Shown here: positions 9,432-60,263 of the stretch, in pieces
Position numbering within the stretch: position 1 is the stretch's first letter
Layout of the letters: each line of letters opens with the position of its first letter
Source of the DNA: an uncultured delta proteobacterium
Lineage (GTDB): Bacteria; Desulfobacterota; Syntrophia; Syntrophales; UBA2185
Direction of reading: 5' to 3'
Length of the DNA: 64,000 nucleotides
NCBI GenBank assembly: GCA_963695875.1
Contig: CAVOID010000010.1
Location: 128,001-192,000, forward strand
The notes under the pieces: model-generated
What the model was told of the DNA's origin: nothing
The model's input: the letters and a program-made list of their open reading frames with translations, nothing else
Database searches by the model: none
Made by a program: the position numbers and the translations under genes

Positions 9432-9438
9432 TAATTGT

Positions 9439-13529: not shown

Positions 13530-13574
13530 AATTTGTTTAACTTCAATTCGGCTTTTTGCGAGGTAATCAGTTTT

Positions 13575-17600: not shown

Positions 17601-17613
17601 GTTCCCTCGAAAT

Positions 17614-19410: not shown

Positions 19411-19411
19411 A

Positions 19412-30337: not shown

Positions 30338-30348
30338 GAGGACGAGAA

Positions 30349-31501: not shown

Positions 31502-31678
31502 AATCCCCCGTGCCCCTTTGAGACTGTGTCACAATGTCATTATGAGGCGTGAAACGATCGAAGCAATCTCGTAACGAGCTAGAGATAAAAAGATTGCAAC
31601 GCTCCCTTTGGTCGCTGACAATGACAAATAAGAATTGTGGCACTGTCTCCTTAATAGTAAAGTGGGCATGGTGGATTT
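31502..31678. repeat. Triple-nested palindromic element (family C halves, 16-bp TIR element, family B core)
   Basis: AATCCCCCGTGCCCCTTT...AAAGTGGGCATGGTGGATTT enclosing GAGACTGTGTCACAAT...ATTGTGGCACTGTCTC enclosing TGTCATT...AATGACA. Confidence 0.7.
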
Positions 31679-38658: not shown

Positions 38659-40332
38659 TGGGAGGACAACCTTGATTCGATGGGATTCACCCCCGGCCGG
38701 GTCTTCCGGGTCTGATTGATAAGTGTCTCCATCTTCTCAACGAGAGGTGGAAGTGATTCAGGATGGAGAGCAGATATTGCTAAGGCGTCAAACATCCGGC
38801 AGAGATTTTTAAGGATTGCTTTGTCGGGAAAGCGATCCTCTTTGTTAAAAACGCGGATGGTCGGTTTTCTAATTATGTCGAGTTCCTCAAGTATCTTCTC
38901 GACTGCCGCTATGTGACTCTCAAAATTCGGGTTGCTGACGTCAATTACATGAAGCAGGACATCGGCTTCCTGGAGTTCATCGAGGGTCGCTCGGAAGGCA
39001 GCGAAAAGATCCCGGGGAAGATCCCGGATGAATCCCACCGTGTCGGTTATGATGGCTTCCGTATCCCGCGGGAAGCGGAGTCGCGAGCTTTTGGGATCAA
39101 GTGTCGCAAACAGGCGGTCCTCTGTAAAAACGTCGCTTTTTGTAAGTGTATTCAGGAGAGTGGATTTGCCTGCATTTGTGTAGCCGACAATGGAGATGAC
39201 GGGAAGTCGCATCCTCTCCCGTTTGATCCGGCGCTGTCCCCTTGCCTTTTCAATCTGCCTGGAGCTCCCGTTCGAGGCGGTGGATTCGATCCCTGACACG
39301 GCGCCGGTTGATCTCAAGCTTTGTCTCTCCGGGCCCCCTTCCCCCGATGCCTCCCGTAAGCCTTGACATGGCCGTGTTTTTCGTAACCAGCCTGGGAAGC
39401 AGGTACTTCAACTGGGCGAGCTCTACCTGGAGTTTGCCTTCCATGCTGTGGGCGCGCCGGGCAAAGATATCGAGAATTACCTGGGTGCGGTCGATGACTT
39501 TCATCTCCGTAAAATCGGCAATCGATCGGATCTGCGCCGGTGTCAGTTCATGGTCGAAGATGAGGAGATTGGCGCCTATCTGCAAGGCCCGGATGACAAG
39601 CTCCGAGATTTTTCCCCTGCCGAGGATGTATCGGGGATCTATCTGCTCACGGTACTGGATGACTGTATCGAAGACCTCAACCCCGCATGACCGGGCAAGT
39701 TCCTTCAGCTCGTTGAGAGAGGCCTGGCTGTCAGCAAGGGGATTCGTCTCCACGCGGATTAGAATGGCACGGTCGACGGAATCTACTTTCCGGGTCTTCT
39801 GCTTTCTTGCAAATTCGCTCTCCAGGGTCTGGATGAAGGCGGCAAAGTCGAGGTGCATCTCCGACGGCCGGTCCTTCTCCATGATAAACCAGTATCTCCC
39901 TTCCGGGTTTTCCGGGATCAGATGGGCCGTGTGGGCATACCCGGGCAGTCCATCCTCCTCCGCCTCAACGGCACAGACGAGATCGAGGCGCAGGAGCGCC
40001 AGGTCCGTCAGGTCATCGGTGGTGAGACCCTCGCCGTTTAGATGGGTATGGATCAGGCGAAGTCCCTTGAAGCGGGTGGAAGAAGAACGAAACCCGTCGA
40101 GGCCGGGGATCATGATTTCCTTGTGTGAACCGACTATCACGTAGGCGATCTCGCCTCTGCGGCTGATCAGGATGCCGATCTGACGGTTGATTTCCCGGGA
40201 AAGAGAGGTAAGTGATCTCGCCAGTTCGTGGGTAACGATGCGTTCCGGAGGTACTTTCCTCCGGTAGAGCTGATCGATCCTTCTGATCTGTTCCGCCCCG
40301 AGACCGGTCAGGTTGCCATAGACTCTATCGAT
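38655..40332 (-). CDS. hflX: GTPase HflX, long N-terminal form (frameshift near 39255; start uncertain)
   Basis: LIHTHL, DRTQVILDIFARRA, GGRGPGETKLE, GYTNAGKST, DTVGF, NKED. Confidence 0.93.
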
Positions 40333-40549
40333 TGCCGGCCCCCTTGCTTTCAGCCGCCCGTGCCGCCATTCTCCTGGCCAGGCGTTCCTCATATCTTTCC
40401 CGGCTGTGGAAACTGGTGCGCCCTATCAACTTCTTCGGATTAAGAGCCCCGCATGCGGGACAGGCGAGACCTTCCTGACCTTCCCCGACTTTCATAAGAC
40501 GTTCAAAGATATGCTTGCAGGTACTGCATTCAAATTCATAGATCGGCAT
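40325..40549 (-). CDS. FmdB family zinc-ribbon protein
   Basis: MPIYEFECSTC...CPACG. Confidence 0.88.
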   Translation of the reverse strand: MPIYEFECSTCKHIFERLMKVGEGQEGLACPACGALNPKKLIGRTSFHSRERYEERLARRMAARAAESKGAGNR

Positions 40550-43192: not shown

Positions 43193-43220
43193 GTCAACCT
43201 AATTATAATTTAGGTTGACA
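43193..43220. promoter_or_regulatory. BirA operator overlapping -35 box
   Basis: GTCAACCTAA-TTATAAT-TTAGGTTGAC palindrome; right arm contains TTGACA; about 30 nt before birA. Confidence 0.85.
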
Positions 43221-43251
43221 ATTAACCGAGTGGGATGATAAGAGCGACGCC

Positions 43252-44232
43252 ATGTCCACAAAGCAGCAATTACTCATCTATTTAAAAGAGGGTAAGGGAA
43301 CCTGGGTCTCCGGGGAATCACTGGCCCATAAAATGGCTATTTCCCGCACGGCCATATGGAAACATGTCCGTAACTTGAAAGAAGATGGCTATGTGATCGA
43401 ATCATCACCGAAAAAGGGATATCTCCTCCGGCAGGCTTCGGACCTGCTTCTTGTAAATGAAATCCAGGAAGGGCTGAACACCAGTGTTTTCGGCAAGAGG
43501 GACATTGCTTATTTCAAGGAAACAGACTCAACCAATTTGAGGGCGAAATTTTTGGCGAGTGACGGCGCACCTGAGGGAACAGTGGTTGTCGCGGAGAGTC
43601 AAACACGGGGAAGGGGCCGAAGGGGGAGAAGCTGGTTTTCACCCTCGGGAGAGGGTATCTATACCTCCATCATTCTGAGACCTTCCATATCCCCGAATGA
43701 AGCACCCAAGCTGACCTTGATGGCATCGGTTGCAGTTGCGGAAGCCTTACTTTCCATGACATCACTAGATATAAATATCAAATGGCCCAATGACATCCTC
43801 GTCAAAGGCAGGAAGATTGCCGGCATCCTGACGGAAATAAGCATGGAAATGGATAGAATTGATTATATAGTCATTGGCGTAGGCATCAATGTAAATACAC
43901 CTCGCAAAAGCCTGCCCCCCGATATCCGGGACATAGCAACTTCCGTTTTCATGGAAACAGGCAAACCCTTCCCCAGAATTGCCCTGCTGCGTGCATATCT
44001 GGAGTGGCTGGAAATATATTATGAAACATTCAAGACCAAGGGCTTTGAACCTGTCATGAATCGCTGGAAGAGCCTTGCTGATATAATCGGACATCGGGTT
44101 AGTGTGGATATGATCGACCGTGTGCGCGTCGGAGAAGTTCTCGATGTAGATAAAGACGGCTTCCTGATCCTCAAAGAACAGGGAGGCGCGCTTGAGAGGA
44201 TAATTTCCGGAGACGTCACCTTACTTGAATAA
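43252..44232 (+). CDS. birA: Bifunctional biotin ligase / repressor
   Basis: N-terminal HTH (SGESLA, SRTAIWKHV), STN, GRGRRGRSW, KWPND, KIAGIL. Confidence 0.97.
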   Translation: MSTKQQLLIYLKEGKGTWVSGESLAHKMAISRTAIWKHVRNLKEDGYVIESSPKKGYLLRQASDLLLVNEIQEGLNTSVFGKRDIAYFKETDSTNLRAKFLASDGAPEGTVVVAESQTRGRGRRGRSWFSPSGEGIYTSIILRPSISPNEAPKLTLMASVAVAEALLSMTSLDINIKWPNDILVKGRKIAGILTEISMEMDRIDYIVIGVGINVNTPRKSLPPDIRDIATSVFMETGKPFPRIALLRAYLEWLEIYYETFKTKGFEPVMNRWKSLADIIGHRVSVDMIDRVRVGEVLDVDKDGFLILKEQGGALERIISGDVTLLE

Positions 44233-44314
44233 TGGGTGAAGCGTTCCTTATATTGTGTGTCATTCGGACCAAAGTATGTCCCACTGGAGTTTAGACAGGA
44301 AGGAGAAATCATCA

Positions 44315-45692
44315 ATGGCAAGGAATCGCCAGAAAAGACTGGAAAATGACGATAAAAAATACATCTGGCATCCCTTTACCCAGATGCGGGGTTACATGAA
44401 GGAAAAGGCCCTGATCATTGAGGAAGGGGAAGGATGCATCCTAAAGGACATTGAGGGCAATTGTTATATCGACGGTGTTTCTTCTCTCTGGACAAATGTT
44501 CATGGGCACAGAAAGGAGCAACTTGACCGTGCCCTGAAAGAACAGGTTGACAAGATTGCCCATTCCACCCTGCTGGGGCTCTCCAATGTACCGGCAATAA
44601 GACTGGCCAAAAAATTAATCGACATTGCTCCCAAAGGGTTGACAAAGGTATTTTACTCCGATAACGGTTCCACCGCCAATGAAATAGCCCTGAAGATGGC
44701 CTTCCAGTACCACCAGCAGGCTCCAACGGGTAATCGCAACAAGAAAAAATTCATTCGCCTTTCCAATGCCTACCACGGAGATACGATAGGGTCTGTGAGT
44801 ATCGGAGGTATCGATCTTTTCCACTCCATGTATAAGGACCTCCTTTTCCCCTCGTACAGGGTGGATGCCCCCTACTGTTACCGCTGCGCCTTCGGGAAAT
44901 CATATCCTTCCTGTGATCTGTATTGCCTGACACCATTGGAAGAGATCATGAAGGGTCACAACCGGGAGATTGCAGCCCTGGTGATAGAGCCGGTCGTCCA
45001 GGGGGCGGGGGGAATCCTTGTCCAGCCGCCGGGATACTTGAAAAAGGTGAGAGAACTCTGCACTCGCTACAAAATCTTCATGATCGCCGATGAAGTGGCC
45101 GTCGGTTTTGGCAAGACGGGGAAGATGTTCGCCTGTGAACATGAAGATGTTGTACCGGATATCATGGCCCTGGCCAAGGGGATTGCGGGAGGATATCTGC
45201 CGCTTGCGGCCACACTCGTGACGGAAGAGATCTACGAGGGATTCCTGGGAGAGTTCGAAGAGTTCAAAACCTTCTTCCACGGACATACCTTTACGGGAAA
45301 TCCCCTGGCCTGTGCAGTCGCCCTTGCCAATCTTGAGGTCTTCGAAGAGGAGCGTACCATGGATAACCTCCAGAAGAAAATTGTCCATCTTAAGAAAAAG
45401 ACTAAAGCCATTTACCGAACTCGCCCACGTCGGCGAGGTGCGCCAGTGCGGATTCATGGTGGGTATCGAGCTTGTTGCGGATAGAAAGACAAAGGAACTT
45501 TTCCCCATTGAGAAGAGAACCGGTCATAGAGTCATTATGGAAGCAAGAAAAAGGGGCGTGATCATCCGTCCCCTGGGGGATGTAATCGTCCTGATGCCGC
45601 CGCTCAGCATTTCTGCAGGGGAGATCGATCAGCTCTGTGACGCGGTATACGAGTCGATCCGGGTTGTCACTGAGGGGCGGGGAAAATCGTGA
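44315..45692 (+). CDS. bioA: 7,8-diaminopelargonate synthase (frameshift near 45395)
   Basis: [43 protein letters not shown]. Confidence 0.93.
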
Positions 45693-45813
45693 CGTCCGAG
45701 ACGCCCAGCATACCAAGCGGCAGGACAAACATCGCGCTAAACTGCACGGCTGTAAGACGGGCGTCTTACCTGTCTATAACGAATGAAATCAGTATCAGGC
45801 AGAGTACTGACCG

Positions 45814-46122
45814 ATGAACATCGAAGGAACTAACAAGGATACCTGGGAGGGTGTATTTTATTTTTCTCCCGATGACAGCATCTACCGGGATCATTTCCCC
45901 GGTTATCCGGTCGTCCCGGGAAGCCTGATCGTCCATGCCTTCCTGCAAGCGGCAGCAGAGGCCGGCATCACGGAAGAGTGTCGCTCACTGGAAAATTTCC
46001 GCTTCCGGGAGTTTCTCACCCCCGGTCGTTATTCATTTCGTATAGAACGTCAGGAGGACCGGTTGAGCTGCCTGATTTATCGCGGTCCGAAGAAACTGGT
46101 TACAGGAGCCTTGGGACAATGA
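45814..46122 (+). CDS. Hotdog-fold 3-hydroxyacyl-ACP dehydratase-like protein
   Basis: DHFPGYPVVPG motif, FREFLTPG. Confidence 0.8.
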   Translation: MNIEGTNKDTWEGVFYFSPDDSIYRDHFPGYPVVPGSLIVHAFLQAAAEAGITEECRSLENFRFREFLTPGRYSFRIERQEDRLSCLIYRGPKKLVTGALGQ

Positions 46123-46863
46123 ATTTGAAATTTTCCGGGATGCGCGCCCTGCTTTTGGGGGGTACCTGCGAACTTGCCCTTACCCTGGCTAGCTTCATGA
46201 TCGAGTACCTCTCTTTTTCCGATCCTGACATACAGGAACGACAAAGGACAAAACGTCATCAAAAAAGCCCTGCCGCACATGGAAGGAAAATACGACACCC
46301 GTTATCTGGACTTCGGCGACCGCGATTCGCTGGACTTACTCTTCTCTTATATTGGTGACGATCTTGATTTTGTGGTTGATTTTGCCCAAGGAAACTATGA
46401 AAGCCTCATCGCGCAGGCGGATAGGGATAGTGTGTATCGATATTTTAGCGAGAATGTCTCCTTTCGTGCGGAGGTTTTGAAAATGGCAGGGAGGGTCATG
46501 CTGAAGAAAAGGAAAGGGAGGCTCGTCTTTATTTCATCAACGGCAGCCCCAAAGCCCAACCCTGGTCAGGGATTTTATGCCGCTGCAAAACTGGCTTCCG
46601 AGGCCCTTTACCGGAATATGGGACTGGAACTGGGGAAACGCGGTATCACCACGGTAATTCTGCGCCCCGGATATGTCGATGCCGGAAGGGGAAAAGAATA
46701 TCTTCAGGAACAGGACGGGAAAATCCTCGAGACGGTGCCGATAAAGAGGGCGATAACACGAAATGAGATTGCGGAAACTATTCTTTTCCTTCTTTCCGAC
46801 AGCGCCGCCGGCATGAACGCCACGGAAATTACCATGGACGGCGGTTTATCATATAGGAAATGA
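46119..46863 (+). CDS. SDR, 3-oxoacyl-ACP reductase-like (frameshift near 46210)
   Basis: ISS, YAAAK, PGYVD, MDGG; atypical N-terminal GGTCELA. Confidence 0.82.
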
Positions 46864-46885
46864 GGGAAATAGCTTTGAGGGTTAC

Positions 46886-47257
46886 ATGGATACTTTTGCA
46901 GAGATAAAGAAGATACTAGTAGAACTCCTTGATCTTGAAGGCGGGGAGATTATGCCGGAGACCTTTTTGATAAAGGAGTTGGGCGCCGAATCCATCGATC
47001 TTCTGGAGCTTGCGGTCGCCATAAACAGTCGCTTCAAAATCGCCGTAAGGGATGAGGCTATTTTTCTGACACGTTTCCGCCTGCATATAACCGAAGCTAC
47101 ACAGCAGGGAAAAGAAATCGTCTCTTATCTTGCCGGGAAATACCCACATCTTACGGAAGACCGGATTACCAAAATCGTCGCACACATCGGTGAAGGACCT
47201 CAATTGCAAATCAAGGATCTGATCAGCTACATAACGTGTCAGTTACAGGCGGTTTGA
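46886..47257 (+). CDS. Acyl carrier protein, extended (123 aa)
   Basis: ELGAESIDLLEL phosphopantetheine-Ser motif. Confidence 0.82.
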   Translation: MDTFAEIKKILVELLDLEGGEIMPETFLIKELGAESIDLLELAVAINSRFKIAVRDEAIFLTRFRLHITEATQQGKEIVSYLAGKYPHLTEDRITKIVAHIGEGPQLQIKDLISYITCQLQAV

Positions 47258-47265
47258 AAACTTAT

Positions 47266-47901
47266 ATGGAGACGCCTCTGGACAAACTGATTCAAGGAAG
47301 AAGAAGCATCCGGAAATATAGGCCGGATATTCCTCCAGAAGAATGGATAAAAAAGATGATCATGACGGCAATGAAAGCGCCATCGCCGACAAACAGTCAG
47401 CCTGTGCGGTTTATCCGTATACTCACCCCGGAATTAAAGGAACAGTTGCGCCAAGCCATGGAACACGGAAGGGAGTGTTTACTAGAGACTGTTAAAGATG
47501 CCCCCAGTTCCAAAAGATTAAGAAATTGGATCACCGCCTACTTTAGGTTCTCGGAATTCATGTTCCATGCACCCATTCTTTTTGCCGTGGGTACAACCGC
47601 GACCTTCGTCAGTCTTTCGGAAAGGCTCTTCCGGGCCGGCATGAGAGAACAGGGACACAAAAAACACAGGGATGTAGATATCGCTGTGGGTCTGGCGCTG
47701 AAAGGATATCTGTTAAAGGGGGAAGATCTGGGTCTCGGTTCCTGCATTCTTACCGCCCCTCTGATTTTCATCGAGGAGCCGGAAACGATTTTTCCTTTGA
47801 AAGGAATAGAGATCAAGTGCTTTGTGACCACGGGATATCCCGATGAAGAACCGGATTACATCAAAAGAAAAGATTTTAATGAAATCTACAGGGAAATCTG
47901 A
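47266..47901 (+). CDS. Nitroreductase-family flavoprotein
   Basis: RRSIRKY, APSPTNSQP, LGLGSC, GYP. Confidence 0.88.
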   Translation: METPLDKLIQGRRSIRKYRPDIPPEEWIKKMIMTAMKAPSPTNSQPVRFIRILTPELKEQLRQAMEHGRECLLETVKDAPSSKRLRNWITAYFRFSEFMFHAPILFAVGTTATFVSLSERLFRAGMREQGHKKHRDVDIAVGLALKGYLLKGEDLGLGSCILTAPLIFIEEPETIFPLKGIEIKCFVTTGYPDEEPDYIKRKDFNEIYREI

Positions 47902-49132
47902 ATTGAAGAGAAGAATTGTCATTACTTCAGTGGGGATTATCTCCTCCCTCGGCCATCAGCATGCTGAGATTATACAAAATCTCAAAGAGGGAAAAGTTAA
48001 TTTTGCCAGGCCCGTCTTTGATAATGACGTCGTTATCGCGCCTGTGGCGAACTTCAATATCCGGGATCATACGGGACGTTTCAAGGACGGCCGCTATCTT
48101 AGCCGGGGTGCTAAGTTTGCCGTTGCCGCCGCGATGGCGGCAATAAAAAATTCAGGTTACAAAAAGGAGGATCTGGCAGAAGGGGGGCTTTTCGTCGGCA
48201 CAGGCCCGAACCTCGATATCGGCGGCGAATTCCCGGATGTCCATGGAGGAAACATTGACCGGGAAGACCTCCAGGCCTTGTGGATTCTGAAATTTCTTCC
48301 CAACACCGCCGCATCCATTATCGCCAAACTGGCGGGGATCCATGGAGAGAACCTGACGGTATCTACCGCCTGTTCGGCGTCCCTGCAGGCGATCGGTGAA
48401 GCCTTTCGCAAAATAAAAGCAGGATATCTAGATTTTGCTATTGCCGGGGGAGGAGATTCACGCCTGAGTCCCGGAGGGATTCTGGCCTACAAGAAGGCGG
48501 GCGCCCTATATGCCGGCAACAGTGATCCCGAAAAGGCAAGCCGGCCCTTTGATTGCAACCGAAAGGGCTTTGTGCCCGGTGAGGGAGGCGCCTTTTTCCT
48601 TCTGGAAGAATTGGAAAGGGCCAAAAAGCGGGGGGCGCGGATATACGGCGAAATCTGCGGTTACGCGAGTTCCCTGGATGCTTACAACATGACGGCCCCG
48701 GAAAGGGAAGGGAAGTGGGGAAGGATTGCCGTGCTTTCTGCCTTGCGGGAAGCGGAAATGTCCCCCTCGCAGATCGACGTGATTTCCACACACGGAACGG
48801 GAACATTTCTAAACGATGCCAGGGAGGCCGATCTCATCGGGGATATCTATGCAGGCTGTAGCCCCCGGGTAATGGCCCTGAAGTCCTGGATCGGGCATAC
48901 CGCGGCCGCCTGTGGCACCATGGAGCTTGCGATCTCTTTGATATGCATGCAGGAGAATTACCTTCCCGAGATCAGGAACCTGCAGGAGCCCTGCCACAGG
49001 GAAATCAACTTTGTGCGGGAGGGAGGAAGCTTTTCTTTTGGTACGTGCACCATTGAAAATTTCGGTTTTGGCGGGCAGAACAGCGTATTGGTTGTAAAAC
49101 GGAGCAATGAACTTTCTTGCGCAGGACTTTAG
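47879..49132 (+). CDS. Beta-ketoacyl-ACP synthase (FabF-like)
   Basis: TACSAS, SRPFD, GEGG, HGTGT, KSWIGH, NFGFGGQN; Cys-His-His triad intact. Confidence 0.92.
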   Translation: MKSTGKSELKRRIVITSVGIISSLGHQHAEIIQNLKEGKVNFARPVFDNDVVIAPVANFNIRDHTGRFKDGRYLSRGAKFAVAAAMAAIKNSGYKKEDLAEGGLFVGTGPNLDIGGEFPDVHGGNIDREDLQALWILKFLPNTAASIIAKLAGIHGENLTVSTACSASLQAIGEAFRKIKAGYLDFAIAGGGDSRLSPGGILAYKKAGALYAGNSDPEKASRPFDCNRKGFVPGEGGAFFLLEELERAKKRGARIYGEICGYASSLDAYNMTAPEREGKWGRIAVLSALREAEMSPSQIDVISTHGTGTFLNDAREADLIGDIYAGCSPRVMALKSWIGHTAAACGTMELAISLICMQENYLPEIRNLQEPCHREINFVREGGSFSFGTCTIENFGFGGQNSVLVVKRSNELSCAGL

Positions 49133-49163
49133 TCCTGCATATGAAAGCAGGCCCTTGCCATAA

Positions 49164-49256
49164 CGTAGTTGCCAGGGAGTGAAACAACCGAAGCAATCTC
49201 CCAATGCATTAGAAACAAGGAGATTGCTACGCTCCTTGAGGGTCGCTCACAATGAC
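49164..49256. repeat. Family B element inside biotin operon
   Basis: GAAGCAATCTCC / GGAGATTGCTAC inner stem, ends CAATGAC; close to the 31535-31626 copy. Confidence 0.65.
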
Positions 49257-49315
49257 CAAAAAAGATGATTACGTCATAATCTGGCTATTGAAATGACATC
49301 TATCGAAAATATCAT

Positions 49316-49768
49316 ATGGATGTGGAAATTGTAATTGATACAGGACTGAAGGGTTTTGTAATACTCGACCGGGTTTTGGAAGTCAGCACTTCCCAAATTG
49401 TCGGTGTCCGATCATTTTCAGATGACCCAGTCTTTTTGGGTCTGGAATCACTCGCCCAGCTTGGTGCGTATCATATCCGTTATCTCACAGGTTTTTCCAG
49501 ACACGTCTTTCTGATTAAAATCTCATACTGCAGTCTCCCTCGTGGAAAAGTTATGGATGGAGAACATCTGCTCTCCGGAAACCTTCGCCATCAGAGCGAA
49601 GCTTCCTTTCTTTGTCACCTGAAGGCGGAAAAAGAGAATAGAACGATCGTAGAGGGGGAATTTCTCTATGCCGCAGTTGACTACGATCATAATTTCCAGA
49701 GTGAAAATTTGCGTCACCACTACACAAAGGTATTTTCATGTTTGCAGAAAGATATAAAAACAGGTTGA
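49316..49768 (+). CDS. Second hotdog-fold dehydratase-like protein
   Basis: FVILDRV and LESLAQLGA, FabZ-like, without the HFP motif. Confidence 0.65.
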   Translation: MDVEIVIDTGLKGFVILDRVLEVSTSQIVGVRSFSDDPVFLGLESLAQLGAYHIRYLTGFSRHVFLIKISYCSLPRGKVMDGEHLLSGNLRHQSEASFLCHLKAEKENRTIVEGEFLYAAVDYDHNFQSENLRHHYTKVFSCLQKDIKTG

Positions 49769-50889
49769 TGATTCAAAAGACCACTGGTCTTTACCGTAAT
49801 CCGCCGGAGGTGAGTACGAAGGAGGGGAAATATCTCCTCATGGGGAGTAGCAGGGTTCTCAATTTCGCCTCCAATGACTATCTGGGACTTAGCGTCTCCG
49901 GGGAAATGCGGCAGAAGGCGGCCCGGAATTTCCAAAAGTACGGTACATCATCTTCCTCCTCGCGTTTAGTATCCGGCAACTACTCGGTAATCAACGAAGC
50001 GGAAAAAGCATACGCATTATATTTCGGGTATTACGACACTTTATTTTTCCCGAGCGGTTACCAGGCAAACATGGGAGTACTCTCCACCTTCCTGGAACGG
50101 GGAGACACAGTTATATTCGACAAGCACATCCATGCCAGCTCCGTCAAAGGAATGACCATGAGCGGCGCTGATTTTTACGGCTATAATCACAATTCCATGT
50201 CCCATCTTGAAAAAAGACTAAAAGCACACAGCAATGGACAGGTCGCAGTTTTAACGGAATCCATCTTCAGCATGGATGGAGATGTTCTTGATGCCGCCGG
50301 CTTAAACAATTTAAAAAATCATTACGGCTTTCTGACAATCGTCGATGAGGCGCACGCTTTTGGCGCCGCAGGTTTCGAGGGACGGGGCTTCGCCGGTTCC
50401 GTCGCGGATATTGCCGTGGGCACATTCGGGAAGGCCTTCGGCTTTTTCGGCGCCTTTGCGCTTCTTCCCGAAGGGTTTAAGGAATACCTCTTTAATTTCT
50501 CTTCCCCTCTCATTTATACCACAACACTCCCGGAAGCACATGCCGCCACTGCTCTGGACATCCTGGGAATCATGGAACGAAGTGAAGACAGGAGAAAAGA
50601 CTTGAGAGGAATCAGTCAATTTATGAGGGAAGGCTTGCGTCGCGAGGGGTTTCAAGTTACCGGTGATGCCCACATTCTGGCGCTCATGGTCGGGGATGAG
50701 GAAAAAGCGGTGAGGCTTTCCCGGCGGCTCCTGGAAAACGATATATTCGTCCTTCCGGCCCGGTACCCGACAGTTCCTCTCGGTCATGCCATATTGAGAA
50801 TAAGCCTCACGGCACTGCTGGAAGAAGAAGACGTCAAATCGTTCATTGCTCACTTGAAGGAAACCAATAGAGAGTTCGAAAAATCCTGA
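49738..50889 (+). CDS. bioF: 8-amino-7-oxononanoate synthase
   Basis: NFASNDYLGL, SRLVSG, SGYQAN, HAS, ESIFSMDGD, DEAH, TFGKA, PTVP. Confidence 0.92.
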   Translation: MFAERYKNRLMIQKTTGLYRNPPEVSTKEGKYLLMGSSRVLNFASNDYLGLSVSGEMRQKAARNFQKYGTSSSSSRLVSGNYSVINEAEKAYALYFGYYDTLFFPSGYQANMGVLSTFLERGDTVIFDKHIHASSVKGMTMSGADFYGYNHNSMSHLEKRLKAHSNGQVAVLTESIFSMDGDVLDAAGLNNLKNHYGFLTIVDEAHAFGAAGFEGRGFAGSVADIAVGTFGKAFGFFGAFALLPEGFKEYLFNFSSPLIYTTTLPEAHAATALDILGIMERSEDRRKDLRGISQFMREGLRREGFQVTGDAHILALMVGDEEKAVRLSRRLLENDIFVLPARYPTVPLGHAILRISLTALLEEEDVKSFIAHLKETNREFEKS

Positions 50890-50931
50890 ATCTTGAATCC
50901 TTTTAGAAACTAAATTGGAAAAGAACTAAAA

Positions 50932-51625
50932 ATGGACAATCTATTTGTGGTGGGGACTGATACAGGGGTGGGGAAGACCGTGCTTTCTCTTCTCTTGATG
51001 AAATTCTTTTTTTCTCGGGGATATAACCCTTTTTATCTGAAGCCAGTGCAGACCGGATGCAAGGATCCAAATGACGTCGACAGTGACGCAAGGTTTATTT
51101 ACCGTTACGTTGGGCAGTTAAAAGATAAGGACCCGGCTGATTCCGTAATCTATTGTTTTAAGAATCCTAAGGCCCCCATTTTTGCCGCCCGTGATGAAGG
51201 CAAAGCAATAGACTTATCGGTTATAATAAAAGCAGTAGTTGAAAAGGCCAGCTCTTACTCGCCTCTTATTATTGAAGGAGCGGGCGGTGTCCTCGTCCCG
51301 GTGGTCGGAGGTACTTTTGTGGCTGACTTACCGATGCTAACAAATGCCAGAGCCGGTTATTGCCGCACGGGCGGGATTGGGAACTATCAACCATACACTT
51401 CTTACCATTGAAGCCCTGACTCGCAGAGGACTTGCACCTTTAGGAGTCGTTTTAATCGATGCGGCGAAAAAAGAAACGCCGCCGGAAATGGTCGCAGAAA
51501 ACATACTGGCCATAGAGGAGGCCTCCGGTGTGAAAGTGACCGGTGTTATCGGCAGAATAATGGAATTTTGCCAACCGCCGCAGGATTGCTATCTGCCGAT
51601 TTCAAAAATGTTTGGTAAATTGTGA
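50932..51625 (+). CDS. bioD: Dethiobiotin synthetase (frameshift near 51350)
   Basis: GTDTGVGKT, KPVQTG, EGAGG, LGTINHTLLT. Confidence 0.93.
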
Positions 51626-52109: not shown

Positions 52110-54086
52110 ATGGGAGAAGCGGAAAAGATTGAACTGAAGGAAGTATATCCTGTTCCCGGTTGGGTTCGCAAGCAGGCCTACATCAAATCACGAGACGAAT
52201 ATGAGAAGCTGTGGAAGCGTTCCATAGAAGATCCTAACGGCTTCTGGTCGGAGATTGCCTCTGAGTACGTGGAGTGGTTCAAGAAGTGGGACAAGGTAGA
52301 AGACTTTAACTTTGATGTGAACAAGGGTCCCATTTACGTCAAGTATTTTGAGGGAGGCAAGCTCAACGTCTCCTACAACTGTTTGGACAGGCATCTGAAG
52401 ACGAGGGGTGACAAGATAGCCATTCAGTGGGAGGGGAATGATCCGGGAGAGGACAGGGCATATACATACAAGGAACTCCATAGGGAGGTATGCAAGTTTG
52501 CCAACGTCCTTAAATCCCTGGGTGTGAAGAAGGGGGACAGGGTCTGTTTCTTTCTTCCCATGATCCCGGAGCTTCCCATCGGGATGCTGGCCTGTACCCG
52601 TATTGGCGCGATACACGGTGCGGTGTTTGGTGGATTCAGCGCAGATTCTCTACGGGACAGGATTCAGGACAGCGGCTCCAAGGTACTGGTGACCTGTGAC
52701 GGGACATTCCGTGGCGCCAAGGCCGTTCCCCAGAAGACAAATGCCGACGAGGCGGTGAAGACATGTCCTTCCATCGAGAAAGTCATCGTGGTGAAGAGGG
52801 TGGGTGAGAAGATAGCATGCAGCATGCAGAAAGGCAGAGACCTGTGGTGGCACGAGGAGATGGCGAAGGCGAGCGACGAGTGTAAGCCGGAGTCGATGGA
52901 CGCTGAAGATCCCCTTTATATTCTGTATACATCAGGCTCCACGGGAAAGCCGAAGGGTGTCATGCACACAACCGGCGGGTATCTTGTGTTTGTAGCATAT
53001 ACTCACAAGATGATATTCGACTACCATGAGGAAGACATTTTCTGGTGCACTGCCGACATCGGCTGGGTGACGGGACACAGCTACATTATTTACGGGCCGC
53101 TTTGCAACGGCGCCACCTCGGTGATGTTTGAGGGAGTGCCGAACTACCCTGATGTAAGCCGTTTCTGGAAGGTTGTGGAAAAATATAAGGTAACGATCTT
53201 CTACACCGCCCCTACGGCCATCCGTGCCATTGCAAAGGAGGGAAGCGACTGGGTAAAGAAGGCGGATCTATCCACCCTGCGTATCTTGGGTACGGTGGGC
53301 GAGCCCATCAATCCGGAGGCATGGAACTGGTACCATCACAATATCGGACGGGACGAGTTACCCATAGTTGATACATGGTGGCAGACGGAGACGGGGGGCA
53401 TTCTGATCACGCCGCTCCCGGGCGCCATTGATCTCAAGCCCGGCAAGGCTACGGTCCCCTTTATGGGGGTATGGCCTGCCATTATCGATGAGAATGGTGA
53501 GGAGATCACAGAGACTGTTGCGAGCGGGCCGCTGTGCATCAAGAAGCCCTGGCCGGGGATCATGCGGAGTGTTTATGGCGATCCCCTGCGGTTCCAGGAG
53601 AATTACTTTATACAGCGTCCCGGATTCTATTATACCGGTGACGGTGCTACCAGGGATGAAGACGGCTATTATCAGCTCATGGGCCGGATTGATGATGTCA
53701 TCAACGTATCCGGGCACAGATTGGGGACTGCGGAGATCGAGAGCGCCCTGGTTGCCCATGAGAAGGTGGCTGAGGCTGCCGTGGTCGGGTATCCCCATGA
53801 TCTCAAGGGTCAGTCCATCTATGCCTATGTGACCCTGAAGACGGGAGTGGAGAAGTCAGACGCATTGAAGAAGGAGCTGGTGGCGCATGTCAGGACTCTG
53901 ATCGGGCCCATTGCTACACCGGAGAAGCTTCAGTGGGCCGATGGCTTGCCGAAGACCCGCAGCGGTAAGATCATGAGGAGGATATTAAGGAAGGTAGCGG
54001 CGAATGAGATCAGTGAACTGGGAGATACTACTACCCTGGCCGATCCTTCCGTCGTTGACGATATCGTGAAGAACAGGGTGCTATAA
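52110..54086 (+). CDS. acs: Acetyl-CoA synthetase (AMP-forming)
   Basis: [47 protein letters not shown]. Confidence 0.97.
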
Positions 54087-54109
54087 AATATCTAAGGAAG
54101 GAGGAAGAC

Positions 54110-54880
54110 GTGAACATTGTTGCATGCGTAAAGCAGGTTCCGGACACGGAAACCCTGATCAAGGTGAAACCTGATGGATCGGGGATTGATGAGACTGGTA
54201 TTAAATGGGTCATGAACCCTTATGACGAGTTTGGTGTCGAAGAGGCCCTGAGATTGAAGGAAAAGTATGGTGGCGATGTCACGATAGTAACACTTGGTCC
54301 AGCGAGGGCACTCGAGGCACTCAGAACCGCCCTTGCCATGGGCGCTGACAAGGGAATATATGTCAATGACCCGGTTTTTGATAATGTAGATGCCTATACT
54401 GTAGCAGCGGCCCTGGCAGCAGCCATCAAAGGTATTCCACATGACATTATCTTTTGCGGACAGCGGGCGATTGACGACGACTCCGGTCAGGTTGGAGCTA
54501 TCTTGGCTGAACTTTTGGGTATCCCTCAGGTAGTCGTTGTCACAAAGGTCGATGTCGAAGGCAAATCCGTCAAGGTGATAAGACCTATCGAAGGTGCCCA
54601 GCTTCTTATAGAGAGTCCCCTGCCATGTGTGATAACAGCCCAGAAAGGTTTGAATGAGCCTCGTTATGCATCCCTTCCGGGTATCATGAAGGCCAAGAAG
54701 AAACCAGTTGATACCAAGGTCGCCACAGGGCTGGGTGTGTCCGTCGACGTAAAGGCAAAGATCGCTAGAACCCTTCCACCCCCGGCCAGGCCTCCAGGAA
54801 AGATTATCTGCGGCGAGGAACCGGCAGAAAAGGCCAGAGAACTGGCCAGACTGCTCAGGGAAGAGGCAAAAGTTATATAA
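54110..54880 (+). CDS. etfB: Electron transfer flavoprotein beta subunit
   Basis: CVKQVPD, NPYD, ALAMGAD, GQRAIDDDSGQVG, NEPRY. Confidence 0.95.
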   Translation: MNIVACVKQVPDTETLIKVKPDGSGIDETGIKWVMNPYDEFGVEEALRLKEKYGGDVTIVTLGPARALEALRTALAMGADKGIYVNDPVFDNVDAYTVAAALAAAIKGIPHDIIFCGQRAIDDDSGQVGAILAELLGIPQVVVVTKVDVEGKSVKVIRPIEGAQLLIESPLPCVITAQKGLNEPRYASLPGIMKAKKKPVDTKVATGLGVSVDVKAKIARTLPPPARPPGKIICGEEPAEKARELARLLREEAKVI

Positions 54881-54904
54881 TTATCGACTATGGAGGTGTA
54901 AAAA

Positions 54905-55882
54905 ATGGCTAAAGGTGTATGGATCGTTGCAGAACAGAGATACGGAGCCTACCGGAAAATCAGTTTTGAACTGGCCAGTACGGCCAGGAAACTTGCGGAC
55001 CAGCTTGGAGAAGAAGTTGGTGCTATTCTGCTTGGTTCCGGGATTGAGGCATTGGCCGGTGAGTTAGGGAAATACGGAGTCGATAAAGTATATGTAGCTG
55101 ACAATGCCCTTTTAGAACCCTATACTACTGATGCCCACGCTGCGGCAGTTGCCCGGCTGGTGAAGGAAAATAATCCCTCTATTCTGCTTTTCGGCGCTTC
55201 CGCTCAAGGCAAGGATCTTTCTGCCCGCCTTGTGGGCAAGCTGGCGACAGGAATGGCAACAGATTGTGTTGATGTGAAGATAGTGGACGGCAAATTGCTC
55301 GCTTTAAGGCCCATGTATGCCGGTAAATGTTATGGTGAAGTCTTAACGTCGTCTTTCCCCCAGATGGCTTCTTTGCGGCCTAATGTATTTCCCGCCGTTG
55401 AAAATTCTAAGACGCCGGAAGTAATCAAATTCGACCCCGGCCTTGATCCAAGCCAGTTGAAAACGAAGGTACTTGAAGTACAGAAGGACACGGCAGGGAA
55501 GGTTGACCTGACCGAGGCTAATATCATTGTATCCGGCGGACGCGGGATGAAAGGACCGGAAAATTACGTAATATTGGAAGAACTGGCAGATGTTCTGGGA
55601 GCAACGGTCGGGGCATCCAGAGCAGCGGTGGATGCGGGTTGGAGGCCCCAGAAGGATCAGGTTGGGCAGACTGGAAAGATCGTTTCCCCCAATCTTTATG
55701 TAGCCTGCGGCATATCCGGTGCAATCCAGCATTTGGCCGGCATGGGTACTTCTAAATACATCGTAGCAATTAATAAGGACCCGGATGCTCCGATCTTCGC
55801 GCGGGCTGATTACGGAATCGTAGATGATCTCTTTAAGGTTGTCCCGGAACTTACAAAAGAGGTTAAGAAACTGCTGGCTTAA
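54905..55882 (+). CDS. etfA: Electron transfer flavoprotein alpha subunit
   Basis: [41 protein letters not shown]. Confidence 0.96.
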
Positions 55883-56050
55883 TTAAGAGCTTTGTGCGAG
55901 GCGCTCAGCGTGGCTCTAAATCTTTTTTCGCGTTTCATGATGAAATTTAACAAACCAATTAAAATGGATGGTTTTATAAATACCCATCAGAGAGAAAAAA
56001 CATTTGATTACCCGCTCAGGACCACTTGCGCAAAGAGGTTATAATAATAC

Positions 56051-56078
56051 GGGGGCGTGTGTGACGCCCCCTTTTTTT
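56051..56078 (+). terminator. Intrinsic terminator-like hairpin just before the DUF224 gene
   Basis: GGGGGCGT-GTGTG-ACGCCCCC-TTTTTTT. Confidence 0.7.
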
Positions 56079-56094
56079 GAAAAAAAGAGGTGTT

Positions 56095-58224
56095 ATGGAA
56101 CTGTCAAAGTTTTCAGTTGGCAACGAGGGTAGAGAGGTCTTCTGGAATGCTGAGAATTTTGAGGGGCTTCTTTTTGTCTTTACGGCTGTCGCGCTGGCCA
56201 TTTTTGCTTACGGGATTTACAAAAGGTGGCAGATGTGGACTGCCCTCGGCAAACCGGAGGTCAGAAATGATAACATTAAGGAACGAATTAAACTGCTCCT
56301 CCTTAATGGTCTGTTTCAGATTAAGACATTCAGAGACGCCTATCCAGGCGTTATGCACGGCTTGATCTTTTTCGGGTTCCTAGGCCTGATATTCGGTGCT
56401 GCATTTGATGCTACGGAATTTCATGTTGGCGAGCCGTTTGGCGCTCCCTTCTTGATAGGAAAATTCTATCTTATATTTTCTTTTCTTATGGAAGTATTCG
56501 GTTTATTTGTTCTTATAGGGATTTTTATAGCTGCGGAAAGGAGATATATTACAAAGCCTGATCGTCTTGGGTACAAGGAGAAGTCCGACAATACACCTGA
56601 TGACGCAATCGTCCTCATTCTGCTCGGAGGCATAATTATTACAGGATTTATCATTGAAGCGTTAAGAATTCACGTCACTGATCCTCCGTGGGAGGTCTGG
56701 TCTTTTGTCGGTTACACCCTGGCAAAGGCATTTTCAGGCATCGATCATGGCACGGCAAGAATAGTTCACAAGGTGATGTGGTGGACTCACACCTTCATCG
56801 CTCTGGGTTTCATCGCCTACATCCCTTACTCAAGGCTGCTGCATATCATCACCACTCCTGCCAATCATTTCATGGCTTCGTTAAAACCAGTAGGAAACAT
56901 TGAACCGATACGCGATTTTGAAACGGCAGAATCCTTTGGTGCGGGACAACTCGAAGATTTTACCTGGAAACAGATATTTGATTCCGATGCATGTACGCGC
57001 TGCGGGCGGTGCCAGGATGGTTGCCCGGCCTATCTGTCCGGGAAACCTCTGTCGCCAAAGAAAGTAGTACAGGATTTGAAAACTTACTGGCTTGAGAGGG
57101 CTCCATTGGTGTCAGCAGCGAAGAAGGCCGGAAGTAAGACAGGAGAAGGCGCGGTACCCGAAATACCGGCCCCGGGAAAAACAATGGTGGGAGAAGTGAT
57201 AGATCTGCACGAACTGTGGGCCTGCACAAACTGCATGTACTGCATGGAACATTGTTCGTCCTCAATCGAGCATGTTCCGAAGATCGTAAATATGAGACAG
57301 TACAAGGTTCTGACGGAAGCGGATTTTGCCCCCGAACTTCAGTTGACCTTCAGGAACATGGAGAATAATTCTAACCCCTGGGGTGTCGGTTCTCACATTC
57401 GAGCCGACTGGGCAAAGGATTTAGGTATCAAGACACTTGCTGAGGATCCAGATGTTGAGTATCTCTTCTATGTAGGATGTGCCGGATCATTTGATGACCG
57501 GGGAAAGAAGGTATCTGCGGCATTTGCAAAGATCCTGAAGGCAGCCGGTGTAAGCTTTGGTATTCTCGGTACTGAAGAGGGCTGCTGTGGCGATTCAGCT
57601 ATGCGGGGTGGAAATGAATATCTCTCACAGGCCCTTATGCAGGCTAATATCGAGGTCATGAACGGCTATGGTGTTAAGAAAATAATCTGTACATGTCCTC
57701 ACGGTTTTAATACCCTGAAAAAGGACTATCCCCACTTCGGTGGAAACTACGAGGTTTATCACCATACGGAGATCATCTCTCAGCTGATTGCTGCCGGGAA
57801 GATCACCTTTAAAAAACCCGTTGAAGGCCTATTCACCTATCACGATTCCTGTTTCCTCGGCAGATACAACGACATCTACGATCAGCCCCGAAAGATTCTA
57901 ACTGCCGTTCCCGGCATGAAGCTGGCAGAAATGGAGCGGAAACTCGATAAGAGCTTCTGCTGCGGCGCAGGCGGGGCGAGGATGTGGATGGAAGAGCATG
58001 ACGGTGAAAGAATCAATAACATGAGGACCGATCAGGCTATTGCCACAAATGCCGGTAATATCGCCGTGGCATGCCCGTTCTGTCTGACCATGATGAGTGA
58101 CGGAATCAAAGCCAGGGAAAAGGAAGAAAAGATGGCTTCATTAGACATTGCCGAGATTGTCTGGCGTGCCATGGGTCTTGAAGAAGAAAAACCGCCTGTA
58201 GATGTGTGTGCACCCACTAAATAG
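56095..58224 (+). CDS. Membrane FeS/CCG oxidoreductase (DUF224, ETF:quinone oxidoreductase-like)
   Basis: NarI-like TM domain with His ligands (MHGLIF, WTH, LLHI), CTRCGRCQDGCP, CTNCMYCMEHC, two CCG motifs; follows etfBA. Confidence 0.88.
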   Translation: MELSKFSVGNEGREVFWNAENFEGLLFVFTAVALAIFAYGIYKRWQMWTALGKPEVRNDNIKERIKLLLLNGLFQIKTFRDAYPGVMHGLIFFGFLGLIFGAAFDATEFHVGEPFGAPFLIGKFYLIFSFLMEVFGLFVLIGIFIAAERRYITKPDRLGYKEKSDNTPDDAIVLILLGGIIITGFIIEALRIHVTDPPWEVWSFVGYTLAKAFSGIDHGTARIVHKVMWWTHTFIALGFIAYIPYSRLLHIITTPANHFMASLKPVGNIEPIRDFETAESFGAGQLEDFTWKQIFDSDACTRCGRCQDGCPAYLSGKPLSPKKVVQDLKTYWLERAPLVSAAKKAGSKTGEGAVPEIPAPGKTMVGEVIDLHELWACTNCMYCMEHCSSSIEHVPKIVNMRQYKVLTEADFAPELQLTFRNMENNSNPWGVGSHIRADWAKDLGIKTLAEDPDVEYLFYVGCAGSFDDRGKKVSAAFAKILKAAGVSFGILGTEEGCCGDSAMRGGNEYLSQALMQANIEVMNGYGVKKIICTCPHGFNTLKKDYPHFGGNYEVYHHTEIISQLIAAGKITFKKPVEGLFTYHDSCFLGRYNDIYDQPRKILTAVPGMKLAEMERKLDKSFCCGAGGARMWMEEHDGERINNMRTDQAIATNAGNIAVACPFCLTMMSDGIKAREKEEKMASLDIAEIVWRAMGLEEEKPPVDVCAPTK

Positions 58225-58556: not shown

Positions 58557-60263
58557 ATGAATATGGACGGAGAGATTAAGTATATGGACAAACCATGGCT
58601 GAAATCCTACGAAAAGGGTGTACCGGCAACGATTAATTACAAAGAGCTTTGTATGCCGGACTTTCATGGACAGCGACGGCGCAGGCCTTTCCCGATAAGA
58701 CAGCCCTGATCTTTCAGGGTTACAAGCTGACGTTCAGGCAGTCTAAAGAAATGGTGGACCGATTTGCGACATGCCTTACTGATTTCGGTATCAAGCCAAG
58801 GGATGCCGTAGCGATCCTTCTTGCCCAATTTGATCCCCTGCGTTATTGCCTATCTTGCCATACTGAAGGTCGGTGCGATCGCGGTCATGAACAATCCCCT
58901 CTATACCAACCACGAGCTCGATCATCAGTTCAATGATTCCGGGTCCAAGGCGCTGATCACCCTTGATCTTCTGGCAAACCGCATGATTGATCTCCGGCCA
59001 AAAACCAAGATCAAGCAAATCGTGTATACATCGATCGGTGATTATCTTCCCTTCCCCAAAAATCTCCTTTTCCCGCTCGTGGCCAAGAAGAAAAAGCTCG
59101 CTGCCGATGTCAAACCGTCGACGGATGTGTTTGCATGGAAGGAGTGCATCGCCAGATACCAACCGAACCCGCCAGCCGTTCAGTTGGGTTTTGAGGATGT
59201 GGCCATGTATCAGTACACGGGAGGAACAACAGGGGTATCCAAAGGCGTAATGCTCACCCACGCCAACCTGAGCAAACAGGTGCAGCAGATAGAGGCCTGG
59301 TTTCCCGGATTTGACAGGGGAACCGAGATCATGCTGGGAGCTCTTCCCTATTTCCATTCTTTCGGCTTGTCCACATGCGATGAATTTATCTGTCTATCAG
59401 GGATGGACACAGATATTGATTCCCAGGCCCCAGCCTCAACCTTTGCTCGAAGCCATCAGAAAATTCAGGCCGACGTTCGCTCCGCTGGTGCCGACCATGT
59501 ATATCGGAATGCTCAATCACCCCGATCTGAAAAAAACAGATATGAGCTGCATCAGGGGAGCCTTCTCCGGAAGCGCTCCCCTGCCCGTGGAAGTCATCCA
59601 TGACTTTGAGAAAATGACAGGGGCCATAATTGTCGAGGGATTCGGACTGACGGAAACTACACCTGTGACCCATATCAATCCTTTCGGCGGTGTCCGCAAG
59701 GTGGGCAGCATCGGTATCCCTATTTCAGACACTCAGTGCCGCATTGTCAGTCTTGATGACGGCGTGACAGACGTGCCTTTGGGAGAGCCTGGGGAAGCTG
59801 ATCATCAAGGGACCGCAGGTCATGAAGGGCTACAAGGACATGCCGGAAGAAACGGCGAACACCCTTCGGGATGGCTGGTTATATACGGGGGATATCGCTA
59901 CGATGGATCAGGACGGATACTTTTACATCGTGGACCGGAAGAAGGACATGATTATCTCCGGCGGCTTCAATATCTACCCACGGGATATTGATGAGGTATT
60001 TTACCAGCACCCCAAGGTGCAGGAAGCGTGTTCCATCGGAATTCCGGATCCGAAAAGAGGGGAAAATGTGAAGGTATTCGTCGTTCTCAAGGAAGGTGAT
60101 GACAGCAACAAAGGAAGAACTCATAGAATTCTGCAAAACAAGGCTTGCAACCTACAAGCTTCCGACGGAGATTGAATTCCGCAAGGAACTTCCAAAAACA
60201 AACGTGGGTAAGATCCTTCGCAAGCAGCTTAAGGCCGAGGAAATGGAGAAACGAAAAAAGTAG
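58557..60263 (+). CDS. Long-chain fatty acid-CoA ligase (FadD-like), several indels
   Basis: [50 protein letters not shown]. Confidence 0.9.

Follow-up and report, generated by a model that had tools for sequence, protein, structure and literature searches.

A BirA-headed biotin operon of the Desulfovibrio type with a putative six-gene pimeloyl module in an uncultured member of the Syntrophales

How do strict anaerobes make the pimeloyl chain from which biotin is built? The pimelate route of sulfate reducers, syntrophs and other strict anaerobes is, to our knowledge, the last widely distributed route to the biotin precursor without known biochemistry. This question is raised by a 64,000-nucleotide stretch of DNA (hereafter, the window) from an uncultured delta proteobacterium of the Syntrophales (assembly GCA_963695875.1, contig CAVOID010000010.1, positions 128,001 to 192,000). 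The first-pass annotation had described in it a biotin operon with the gene order birA-bioA-hot1-SDR-ACP-nitroreductase-KAS-hot2-bioF-bioD, where hot1 and hot2 encode hotdog proteins, SDR is a short-chain dehydrogenase/reductase, ACP an acyl carrier protein and KAS a ketoacyl-ACP synthase. It had proposed that the six genes inserted between bioA and bioF form a dedicated module, which builds pimeloyl-ACP on its own carrier in place of BioC, BioH or BioW. The list of open reading frames (ORFs) and the Pfam and NCBIfam matches bear out this gene content and order, with ten plus-strand genes in 43193-51625 behind one palindrome. We conclude that the locus is very probably a functional biotin operon of the "Desulfovibrio type" under BirA repression, in which a six-gene pimeloyl module makes BioC and BioH unneeded and the frameshifts in the sequence are assembly errors. 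The operon comprises the following features, in window positions.

43193..43219, no strand: BirA operator, GTCAACC-N13-GGTTGAC, 33 nt 5' of the birA ATG
43252..44232, plus strand: birA, biotin ligase and repressor, 326 aa, with HTH_11, BPL_LplA_LipB and BPL_C domains (Pfam)
44315..45692, plus strand: bioA, 7,8-diaminopelargonic acid aminotransferase (TIGR00508), frame broken by an extra base near 45392
45814..46122, plus strand: hot1, short FabZ-like hotdog protein, 102 aa (PF07977 FabA, E-value (E) 1.2e-7)
46119..46863, plus strand: FabG-like SDR, 3-oxoacyl-ACP reductase candidate, extra base near 46205
46886..47257, plus strand: extended ACP, 123 aa (PP-binding, E 7.3e-7), with Ser36 in an ESID motif
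47266..47901, plus strand: nitroreductase-family flavoprotein (PF00881, E 3.9e-21), candidate enoyl-ACP reductase
47903..49132, plus strand: FabF-like KAS I/II with the N- and C-terminal ketoacyl-synt domains, TTG start, in ORF 47843-49132
49093..49324, no strand: strain-specific segment between KAS and hot2, 232 nt
49316..49768, plus strand: hot2, second hotdog protein, 150 aa, from an AlphaFold2 (AF2) model and Foldseek
49738..50889, plus strand: bioF, 8-amino-7-oxononanoate synthase (Aminotran_1_2, E 9.9e-53)
50932..51625, plus strand: bioD, dethiobiotin synthase (TIGR00347), frame broken by an extra base near 51352

The biotin genes are recognizable by their families. BirA matches TIGR00121 with 221.9 bits, as well as birA_repr_reg (NCBIfam). 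bioA is carried by two ORF pieces in two frames, 44255-45484 and 45312-45692, where TIGR00508 reaches 477 bits on the N-terminal part and, in the other frame, 70 bits on the C-terminal one, and bioD by the pieces 50932-51411 and 51344-51625, with 95.7 and 27.7 bits for TIGR00347 in two frames. TIGR00858 is the top family of BioF, with 325.3 bits, under the equivalog cut-off of 426.45, and Kbl comes next at 252 bits; the name is supported by the fact that the gene adjoins bioD, and the low-scoring BioF of this cluster type may be adapted to an unusual carrier protein. bioB, which is outside the window as the first-pass annotation had stated, was located on another contig (C13:14668-15573, minus strand, 400.6 bits). 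Throughout the genus of the window (G000, G001, G002), bioB lies on a separate contig from the operon; in other genera of the family it is divergent beside birA, with a BirA site common to both (e.g. G007:C1:1367286-1368188). No BirA-like site with two or fewer mismatches occurs on contig C13, which carries the unlinked bioB.

The spacing within the operon is mostly overlapping or close, as first described: an ATGA overlap joins hot1 and SDR, hot2 and bioF overlap by 31 nt, and the nitroreductase stop and the KAS start are 1 nt apart. The next gene after bioD begins 485 nt downstream. A promoter and terminator scan gave nothing decisive, with 9 terminator-like sites against 10.0 expected. The 232-nt segment between KAS and hot2 looks like a small strain-specific insertion. 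We aligned to the region contigs with near-identical DNA from four public metagenome runs (X1-X4), and those of X2, X3 and X4 have 18 nt in its place, which gives an ATGA overlap of KAS stop and hot2 start; the same overlap is found in the same-genus relative L031. Word depth in run X1 is 30.8 in the bin 49115-49396. The segment contains two hairpins and promoter-like hexamers (49288-49315), and one 77%-alike copy of it lies at window positions 31546-31633.

The arrangement is widely conserved. We collected 64 related loci with a hot2 profile, which belong to the Syntrophales (Syntrophaceae), and also to the Syntrophobacterales, Desulfobacterales, Desulfarculales and one SAR324 metagenome-assembled genome; Syntrophobacter and other Syntrophobacteraceae are among them (L078, L081, L085, L087). 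The exact order hot1-SDR-ACP-nitroreductase-KAS-hot2 is kept in 42 of the 45 loci covering it, bioA is directly 5' of hot1 in 38 of 42, and bioF is directly 3' of hot2 in 59 of 60. We also examined 41 genomes of the order (G000 included), where the module KAS, scored at 58% identity or more, is present in 25, with hot2 in the same 25. These carriers comprise all 22 genomes of the family and three other families, and all 25 have bioB. BioC exceeds its cut-off in none of the 41 genomes, and bioW is found in one, which lacks the module. Seven genomes have bioB and no module, and one of these seven has bioW. These counts are compatible with the expected co-occurrence of the module with absence of bioC, bioH and bioW; as BioC is missing throughout the order, they show compatibility only, and not complementarity.

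The palindrome that was said to head the operon has a perfect inverted repeat (100% complementary), GTCAACCTAA-N7-TTAGGTTGAC. Within the 2.86-Mb genome, no other GTCAACC-N11-16-GGTTGAC site has fewer than two mismatches; the remaining 42 operator-like sites among those listed have two mismatches each. Of the 37 related loci with at least 350 nt of upstream DNA, 23 have the same half-sites ahead of the operon, at a spacing of N14 in 17 and N15 in 6, N13 occurring in none of them. Both half-sites agree with the deltaproteobacterial BirA boxes given in the accessible part of PMC545781, whose Table 1 has TTGTcAACC-N14-GGTTgACAA. The N13 spacing of the window may be a further assembly deletion, or a real change able to weaken repression.

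Taken together, the locus is a "Desulfovibrio-type" extended bio cluster in its in-cluster nitroreductase variant, linked to that type by its architecture and by its Syntrophobacter-type relatives, and it is not new in kind. Fatty acid synthase (FAS)-like genes lie among bioA, bioF and bioD, a BirA operator is present, bioC, bioH and bioW are absent at the family cut-offs, and a nitroreductase is associated. As far as the accessible text of Rodionov 2004 (PMC545781) goes, this cluster type was predicted in that year as a new pimeloyl-CoA route in Desulfovibrio. The excerpts of Trotter 2023 (PMC10102598) report by random-barcode transposon-site sequencing (RB-TnSeq) that D. vulgaris specifically requires DVU2558-2565 and the nitroreductase DVU1220 when biotin is absent, propose that malonyl-ACP is elongated on a specialised ACP with no methyl esters, and place a nitroreductase inside the cluster in Syntrophobacter fumaroxidans and Desulfobacter vibrioformis; by the same account, the biochemistry of the cluster is still to be defined. 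The remark at first reading that Fab-like genes in biotin operons of sulfate reducers had already been noted, with their chemistry unsolved, therefore agrees with these portions of both papers, and the idea of a dedicated module behind a BirA site, between bioA and bioF, matches a published hypothesis. Later biochemical work was not found in the literature searched, where the DVU gene names occur only in PMC10102598 and a preprint. Like the window, the cluster of D. vulgaris Hildenborough and the nitroreductase-bearing ones of S. fumaroxidans and D. vibrioformis combine, among bio genes, a pair of FabZ-like proteins with a 3-oxoacyl-ACP reductase, a special ACP and a FabF-like KAS. A BirA site precedes them, bioC, bioH and bioW are lacking, a nitroreductase is associated (in the window, inside the cluster), and the carriers are anaerobes of the former Deltaproteobacteria. 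In Desulfovibrio, according to the portion of PMC545781 seen, birA is divergent and the cluster includes bioB; here birA is co-directional at the head and bioB is unlinked.

Is another source of pimelate encoded in the same genome? None was found above the family cut-offs: the best matches reach 61 bits for BioC (cut-off 185) and 86 bits for BioH (cut-off 207), BioW has no match, and no P450 is present. The genome has one good FabH and a second FabH-like ORF that is weak and fragmented; neither is linked to bio genes. The claim that BioC, BioH and BioW are lacking stands in this form, for a genome that is 82.6% complete and with no family search for BioG, BioZ or BioE. Housekeeping type II FAS genes are separate, with acpP (C4:159563-159787) and fabF on C4, fabD on C3, fabH and fabG on C5, and also fabZ, and the module really is an extra, private FAS set. 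It was first described as a stand-alone elongation module, which holds for this private set beside the housekeeping enzymes and fails in that the cluster includes neither FabD nor AcpS (Pfam, NCBIfam) and no proven enoyl reductase. We also observed a second FAS-like group at G000:C3:223496-226015 (FabZ-like, FabG-like and a fragmented, weak FabH-like frame), far from bio genes.

In the cycle that we infer, which is conjectural at all its steps, housekeeping AcpS and FabD would load the special ACP with malonate. The KAS would accept a free-carboxylate malonyl primer and later a glutaryl primer, joining malonyl-ACP to each in turn. Its Arg/Tyr/Lys cluster, close to where FabF has the I108-F202 back gate, would hold the omega-carboxylate, and two Trp residues would shorten the pocket and set a chain length of C7. 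The FabG-like SDR would reduce the 3-oxo group, a heterodimer of hot1 and hot2 would dehydrate the product at a composite site formed by His27 of hot1 and Glu44 of hot2, and either the flavin mononucleotide-dependent nitroreductase-fold protein or a housekeeping FabK-like enzyme would reduce the enoyl thioester. After two rounds, BioF would condense pimeloyl-ACP with alanine, and BioA, BioD and the unlinked BioB would complete biotin. This scheme resembles the BioC/BioH pathway of E. coli, in which two rounds of FAS type also lead from a malonyl primer to pimeloyl-ACP for BioF. There, however, a methyl ester and the housekeeping FAS are used, whereas the present module has no methyltransferase or esterase and comes with enzymes and an ACP of its own, so that the free carboxylate must be tolerated.

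We would go further only tentatively, and think it rather doubtful that every part holds at once: a complete, carboxylate-tolerant mini-FAS, with an obligate heterodimeric FabZ that has a single active site, a nitroreductase-fold protein representing a new class of enoyl-ACP reductase, and an Arg/Tyr/Lys-capped, Trp-shortened KAS that stops at C7, all acting on a seven-helix ACP. The carrier itself shows E35, S36, I37 and D38 invariant among 49 sequences. Its AF2 model has seven helices at a predicted local distance difference test (pLDDT) of 94.3, and its best Foldseek matches are ACPs, with tight superposition over only about the first 56 residues and E of at least 0.008.

For the enoyl reduction, there is a competing enzyme to consider. 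The nitroreductase ORF opens at a GTG at 47236, and the ATG at 47266 agrees with the starts in relatives. Its nearest NCBIfam families are the C-terminal domain of FbiB and BluB, and its PDB sequence matches include 3gfa, iodotyrosine deiodinase, FbiB (4xom) and the enone reductase CLA-ER (4qlx), the best of all (E 5.6e-11) being an uncharacterised protein. The C-terminal domain of FbiB reduces dehydro-F420-0. With these C=C reductases, the protein shares the fold family (E 3.3e-4 for CLA-ER and 7.8e-7 for the FbiB C-terminal domain), and its sequence is compatible with a role as ene-reductase, given such distant relatives; CLA-ER and FbiB do not act on acyl-ACP, and the enoyl-ACP reductase role remains hypothetical here. 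Alternatively, a housekeeping FabK-like enzyme may perform the step and the flavoprotein may have another redox or cofactor role. Two FabK-like ORFs do exist elsewhere in the genome (269.9 and 260.6 bits, below the cut-off), so the nitroreductase need not be the enoyl reductase, and 4 of 48 related loci have the cluster without it; both observations favor this alternative, and the part of Trotter et al. (PMC10102598) available to us leaves the two options open. On the other hand, 44 of the 48 loci have the gene between ACP and KAS, a nitroreductase is a specific requirement of biotin synthesis in D. vulgaris (PMC10102598, same part), and C=C-reducing members of the fold, 4qlx and 4xom, are among the PDB matches. 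We regard the FabK-like enzyme as a possible but somewhat improbable answer, and keep the nitroreductase as the candidate.

The second point to be weighed is the primer, which turns on the condensing enzyme. The KAS aligns with FabF of T. thermophilus (1j3n) at E 9.8e-60, with the motifs TACSAS, HGTGT and GHT on the catalytic Cys, His and His. The Cys-His-His triad and the GFGG loop (C163, H303, H340 and F400) are conserved in the alignment with 1j3n and E. coli FabF (EcFabF). The protein is 31.5% identical to EcFabF, against about 46-57% identity in the case of the housekeeping C4 copy, and with 280.9 bits for TIGR03150 (cut-off 493.75) it falls under the housekeeping FabF equivalog level. 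We compared the pockets of 49 module sequences with those of about nine housekeeping paralogues and EcFabF; the housekeeping set had ten paralogue loci, including L106, whose longest ORF is doubtful and was kept. In the module KAS, Arg occupies the position of EcFabF A193 in 48 of 49 sequences, Tyr that of F202 in all 49 and Lys that of A204 in 47; Trp is found at both F133 and M337 in 49 of 49, and a P-N-L insertion sits just before the I108 position. In the portion of PMC9006962 seen, the FabF back gate consists of I108 and F202, at about C7-C8 of the bound acyl chain. From the alignment, the polar and basic residues at the back gate would suit the omega-carboxylate of a C5-C7 diacid, and the Arg, Tyr and Lys may serve carboxylate tolerance; that the pocket was mapped by sequence alignment only is a weakness of this argument.

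These residues would fit a C5 diacid too, and a single round of elongation from a glutaryl thioester of catabolism (the benzoate, lysine or glutarate routes of syntrophs), with the logic of BioZ, would also yield a C7 chain. Acyl-CoA ligases, an acyl-CoA dehydrogenase, electron transfer flavoprotein (ETF) and a thiolase are encoded nearby, and BioZ shows that such a primer is feasible (PMC7645780, from the part available). The alpha-proteobacterial BioZ, which joins glutaryl-CoA and malonyl-ACP, resembles the module KAS as a condensing enzyme in a bio cluster that handles a dicarboxylic acyl chain; unlike it, BioZ is a FabH-like, CoA-primed KAS III that relies on the housekeeping FAS, whereas the module has a KAS I/II with Cys-His-His and its own reductase, dehydratase and ACP. 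Several features make such a catabolic glutaryl primer unlikely: the KAS belongs to the KAS I/II type and not to the CoA-primed KAS III type, no acyltransferase for moving glutaryl from CoA to ACP was found in the cluster (Pfam, NCBIfam), and the catabolic neighbours are outside the operon, beyond the 485-nt gap after bioD. Conservation of the full set of reductase, dehydratase and possible enoyl reductase also points to more than one round, but is a weak point, as one round needs the set too. We thus retain two rounds from malonyl as the preferred scheme.

For the dehydration step, the two hotdog proteins have to be considered together. In FabZ, the active site is made of a His from one subunit and a Glu from the other. 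hot1 aligns with E. coli FabZ at 95.6% probability (hhalign), with H27 on the His of the HFPG motif and H41 on the FabZ Glu. H27 is invariant among 44 sequences, while the Glu position holds His in 26 of 43 and has one Glu and one Asp only; lacking the Glu in 41 of 43, hot1 alone is therefore without the FabZ catalytic pair. TIGR01750 (FabZ) gives 25.6 bits on hot1 against a cut-off of 155 and does not match hot2, which has no Pfam or NCBIfam match at all. The AF2 model of hot2 (pLDDT 88) nevertheless has a hotdog fold, and its best PDB matches are FabZ, with template modelling (TM) scores of 0.62-0.72 at 13-20% identity (Foldseek), so that the label of a second dehydratase-like protein, given at first reading, is justified because of the fold. 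E44 of hot2 is invariant in 44 sequences, and an ExxAQ[LI]GA motif is present in 61 of 64. When we looked for both His and Glu in one polypeptide, as in FabZ, neither protein had them: hot1 has the His only and hot2 the Glu only.

These complementary residues suggest that hot1 and hot2 form a heterodimer, in which the two proteins are predicted, from sequence and model, to contribute complementary halves of the FabZ catalytic pair to one complete site. Since the pair would be split over two proteins, the interface could form two sites but complete just one of them. The predicted hot1-hot2 complex scores 0.88, compared with 0.00 for the best control, and so attains a mark that 116 of 157 solved complexes reach, as do 2 of 215 mismatched pairs; contact agreement between runs is at least 95%, partner pLDDT is at least 86, and the interface includes hot1 25-31 and hot2 38-44. 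With the FabZ homodimer or hexamer, the pair shares the hotdog fold, the HFPG-His motif (in hot1) and the Glu-x-x-AQ motif (in hot2); it differs in having the catalytic pair on two proteins and in the truncation of hot1 (102 against 151 aa). Three points argue the other way. hot2 aligns only weakly with E. coli FabZ (30% probability, hhalign), with E44 on the FabZ Glu and a non-conserved Ser on the FabZ His; the hot1-hot2 comparison is not significant (1.8% probability, hhalign), and paralogy is therefore not claimable from it; and the complex score may be driven by likeness to solved FabZ homodimers.

hot2 might instead be a hotdog thioesterase or a chain-length gatekeeper that ends elongation at C7, and no subunit of a dehydratase. 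The FabZ His is not present in it, 4-hydroxybenzoyl-CoA thioesterases appear among its Foldseek matches from rank 39 (E 1.6e-5), and its gene is wedged between KAS and bioF, with overlap or translational coupling on either side. This role is, however, quite improbable, as the top 38 among the listed Foldseek matches are FabZ, the invariant Glu falls on the FabZ catalytic Glu, hot1 would be left without a catalytic pair, the heterodimer prediction passed its controls, and free pimelate would need BioW, for which we found no match in the genome. We continue to favor the heterodimeric dehydratase.

All of this presupposes that the operon encodes intact proteins. bioA, SDR and bioD are each split over two frames, a point missed at first reading; in the SDR, the pieces are 46119-~46205 and 46279-46863, the C-terminal part matching adh_short_C2 (E 1.3e-25) and TIGR01830 (E 7.3e-24). 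DNA alignments with L030, L031 and L032 show one extra base at each break, and the three genes are in a single frame in all five relatives (L030-L034), the intact SDR ORFs of relatives having 247-267 aa. The metagenome contigs lack the base at 46205 (SDR) in all four runs, that at 51352 (bioD) in X2, X3 and X4, and that at 45392 (bioA) in one X4 contig with a depth of 2.41. At least nine further genes of the window are split likewise, according to a Pfam scan of 60 other ORFs: those for TruB, PNPase, PilM, HflX, a secretin and a thiolase are in two pieces each, those for HcyBio and HolA in three, and one acyl-CoA ligase gene in four. Split housekeeping genes are found across the window, for example at these positions.

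290-1051, 1715-3836, 5577-6625, 26254-27620, 38655-40392, 58649-60175 and 61781-63072: split housekeeping genes

Likewise, the housekeeping fabF on C4 is spread over three frames, and the assembly, with 16 contigs and a completeness of just 82.6%, has about one indel per few kilobases. The clear reading is that the three extra bases are assembly errors and not decay, because relatives are intact, housekeeping genes are split, independent contigs lack the bases, and the genome is incomplete and in many contigs; a pseudogene reading of the three frameshifts was rejected on the first three of these grounds. That the frameshifts are real, the operon decaying and the organism a biotin auxotroph is hardly credible, since the three out-of-frame genes among ten are matched by essential genes split alike in window and genome, every relative examined is intact, contigs of independent origin lack the bases at 45392, 46205 and 51352, and protein identity to same-genus relatives is otherwise 78-90%, with no stops or deletions. 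An extra T at 47903 was considered as a fourth frameshift and ruled out, this position being the KAS start, which is polymorphic: TGA-A-TTG here and in X2, TGA-ATG in X3, X4 and part of X1.

Several observations weigh against our conclusion that this is a working operon whose module replaces BioC and BioH. The window as given encodes a broken bioA, SDR and bioD, the bioA break is covered by that single low-depth contig only, and the metagenome contigs come from other samples or strains and therefore show intact alleles and not the source reads. At 82.6% completeness, the missing matches to bioC, bioH and bioW are no proof of absence. The hot2 profile has no match in 150 other genomes sampled across the phylum, so the module is rare or patchy there, or the profile is narrow. 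Lastly, the literature searched gave no published activity, product or primer for this cluster type.

The surroundings of the operon show features of their own. Genes for acyl-CoA and acetyl-CoA synthetase-like proteins, an acyl-CoA dehydrogenase, the beta and alpha subunits of ETF and a membrane Fe-S (CCG-domain) oxidoreductase flank it at 52110-58224 and 28694-31491; they are typical of syntrophic fatty-acid or aromatic metabolism and are outside the bio operon. Further away (7935-20218), a type IV pilus cluster includes pilMNOPQ, a PilY1-like protein of 1116 aa, minor pilins with N-methylation motifs and a DsbC-like protein.

With respect to the pimelate route of anaerobes, the window adds nothing categorically new. 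It does show that one whole family of the Syntrophales is fixed for the six-gene form, and, as frequent single-base indels fragment the gene calls, that intact pathways will be under-reported from this assembly. It also offers three hypotheses open to mutational tests: the His27(hot1)/Glu44(hot2) site, the Arg187/Tyr196/Lys198 cluster of the KAS (numbered from the TTG start at 47903), and the nitroreductase as an ene-reductase. If the full mini-FAS scheme is true, three of its parts, the FabZ heterodimer, the reductase and the KAS, would be without a characterised counterpart, and the enlarged seven-helix ACP would keep the pimelate pathway apart from lipid synthesis.

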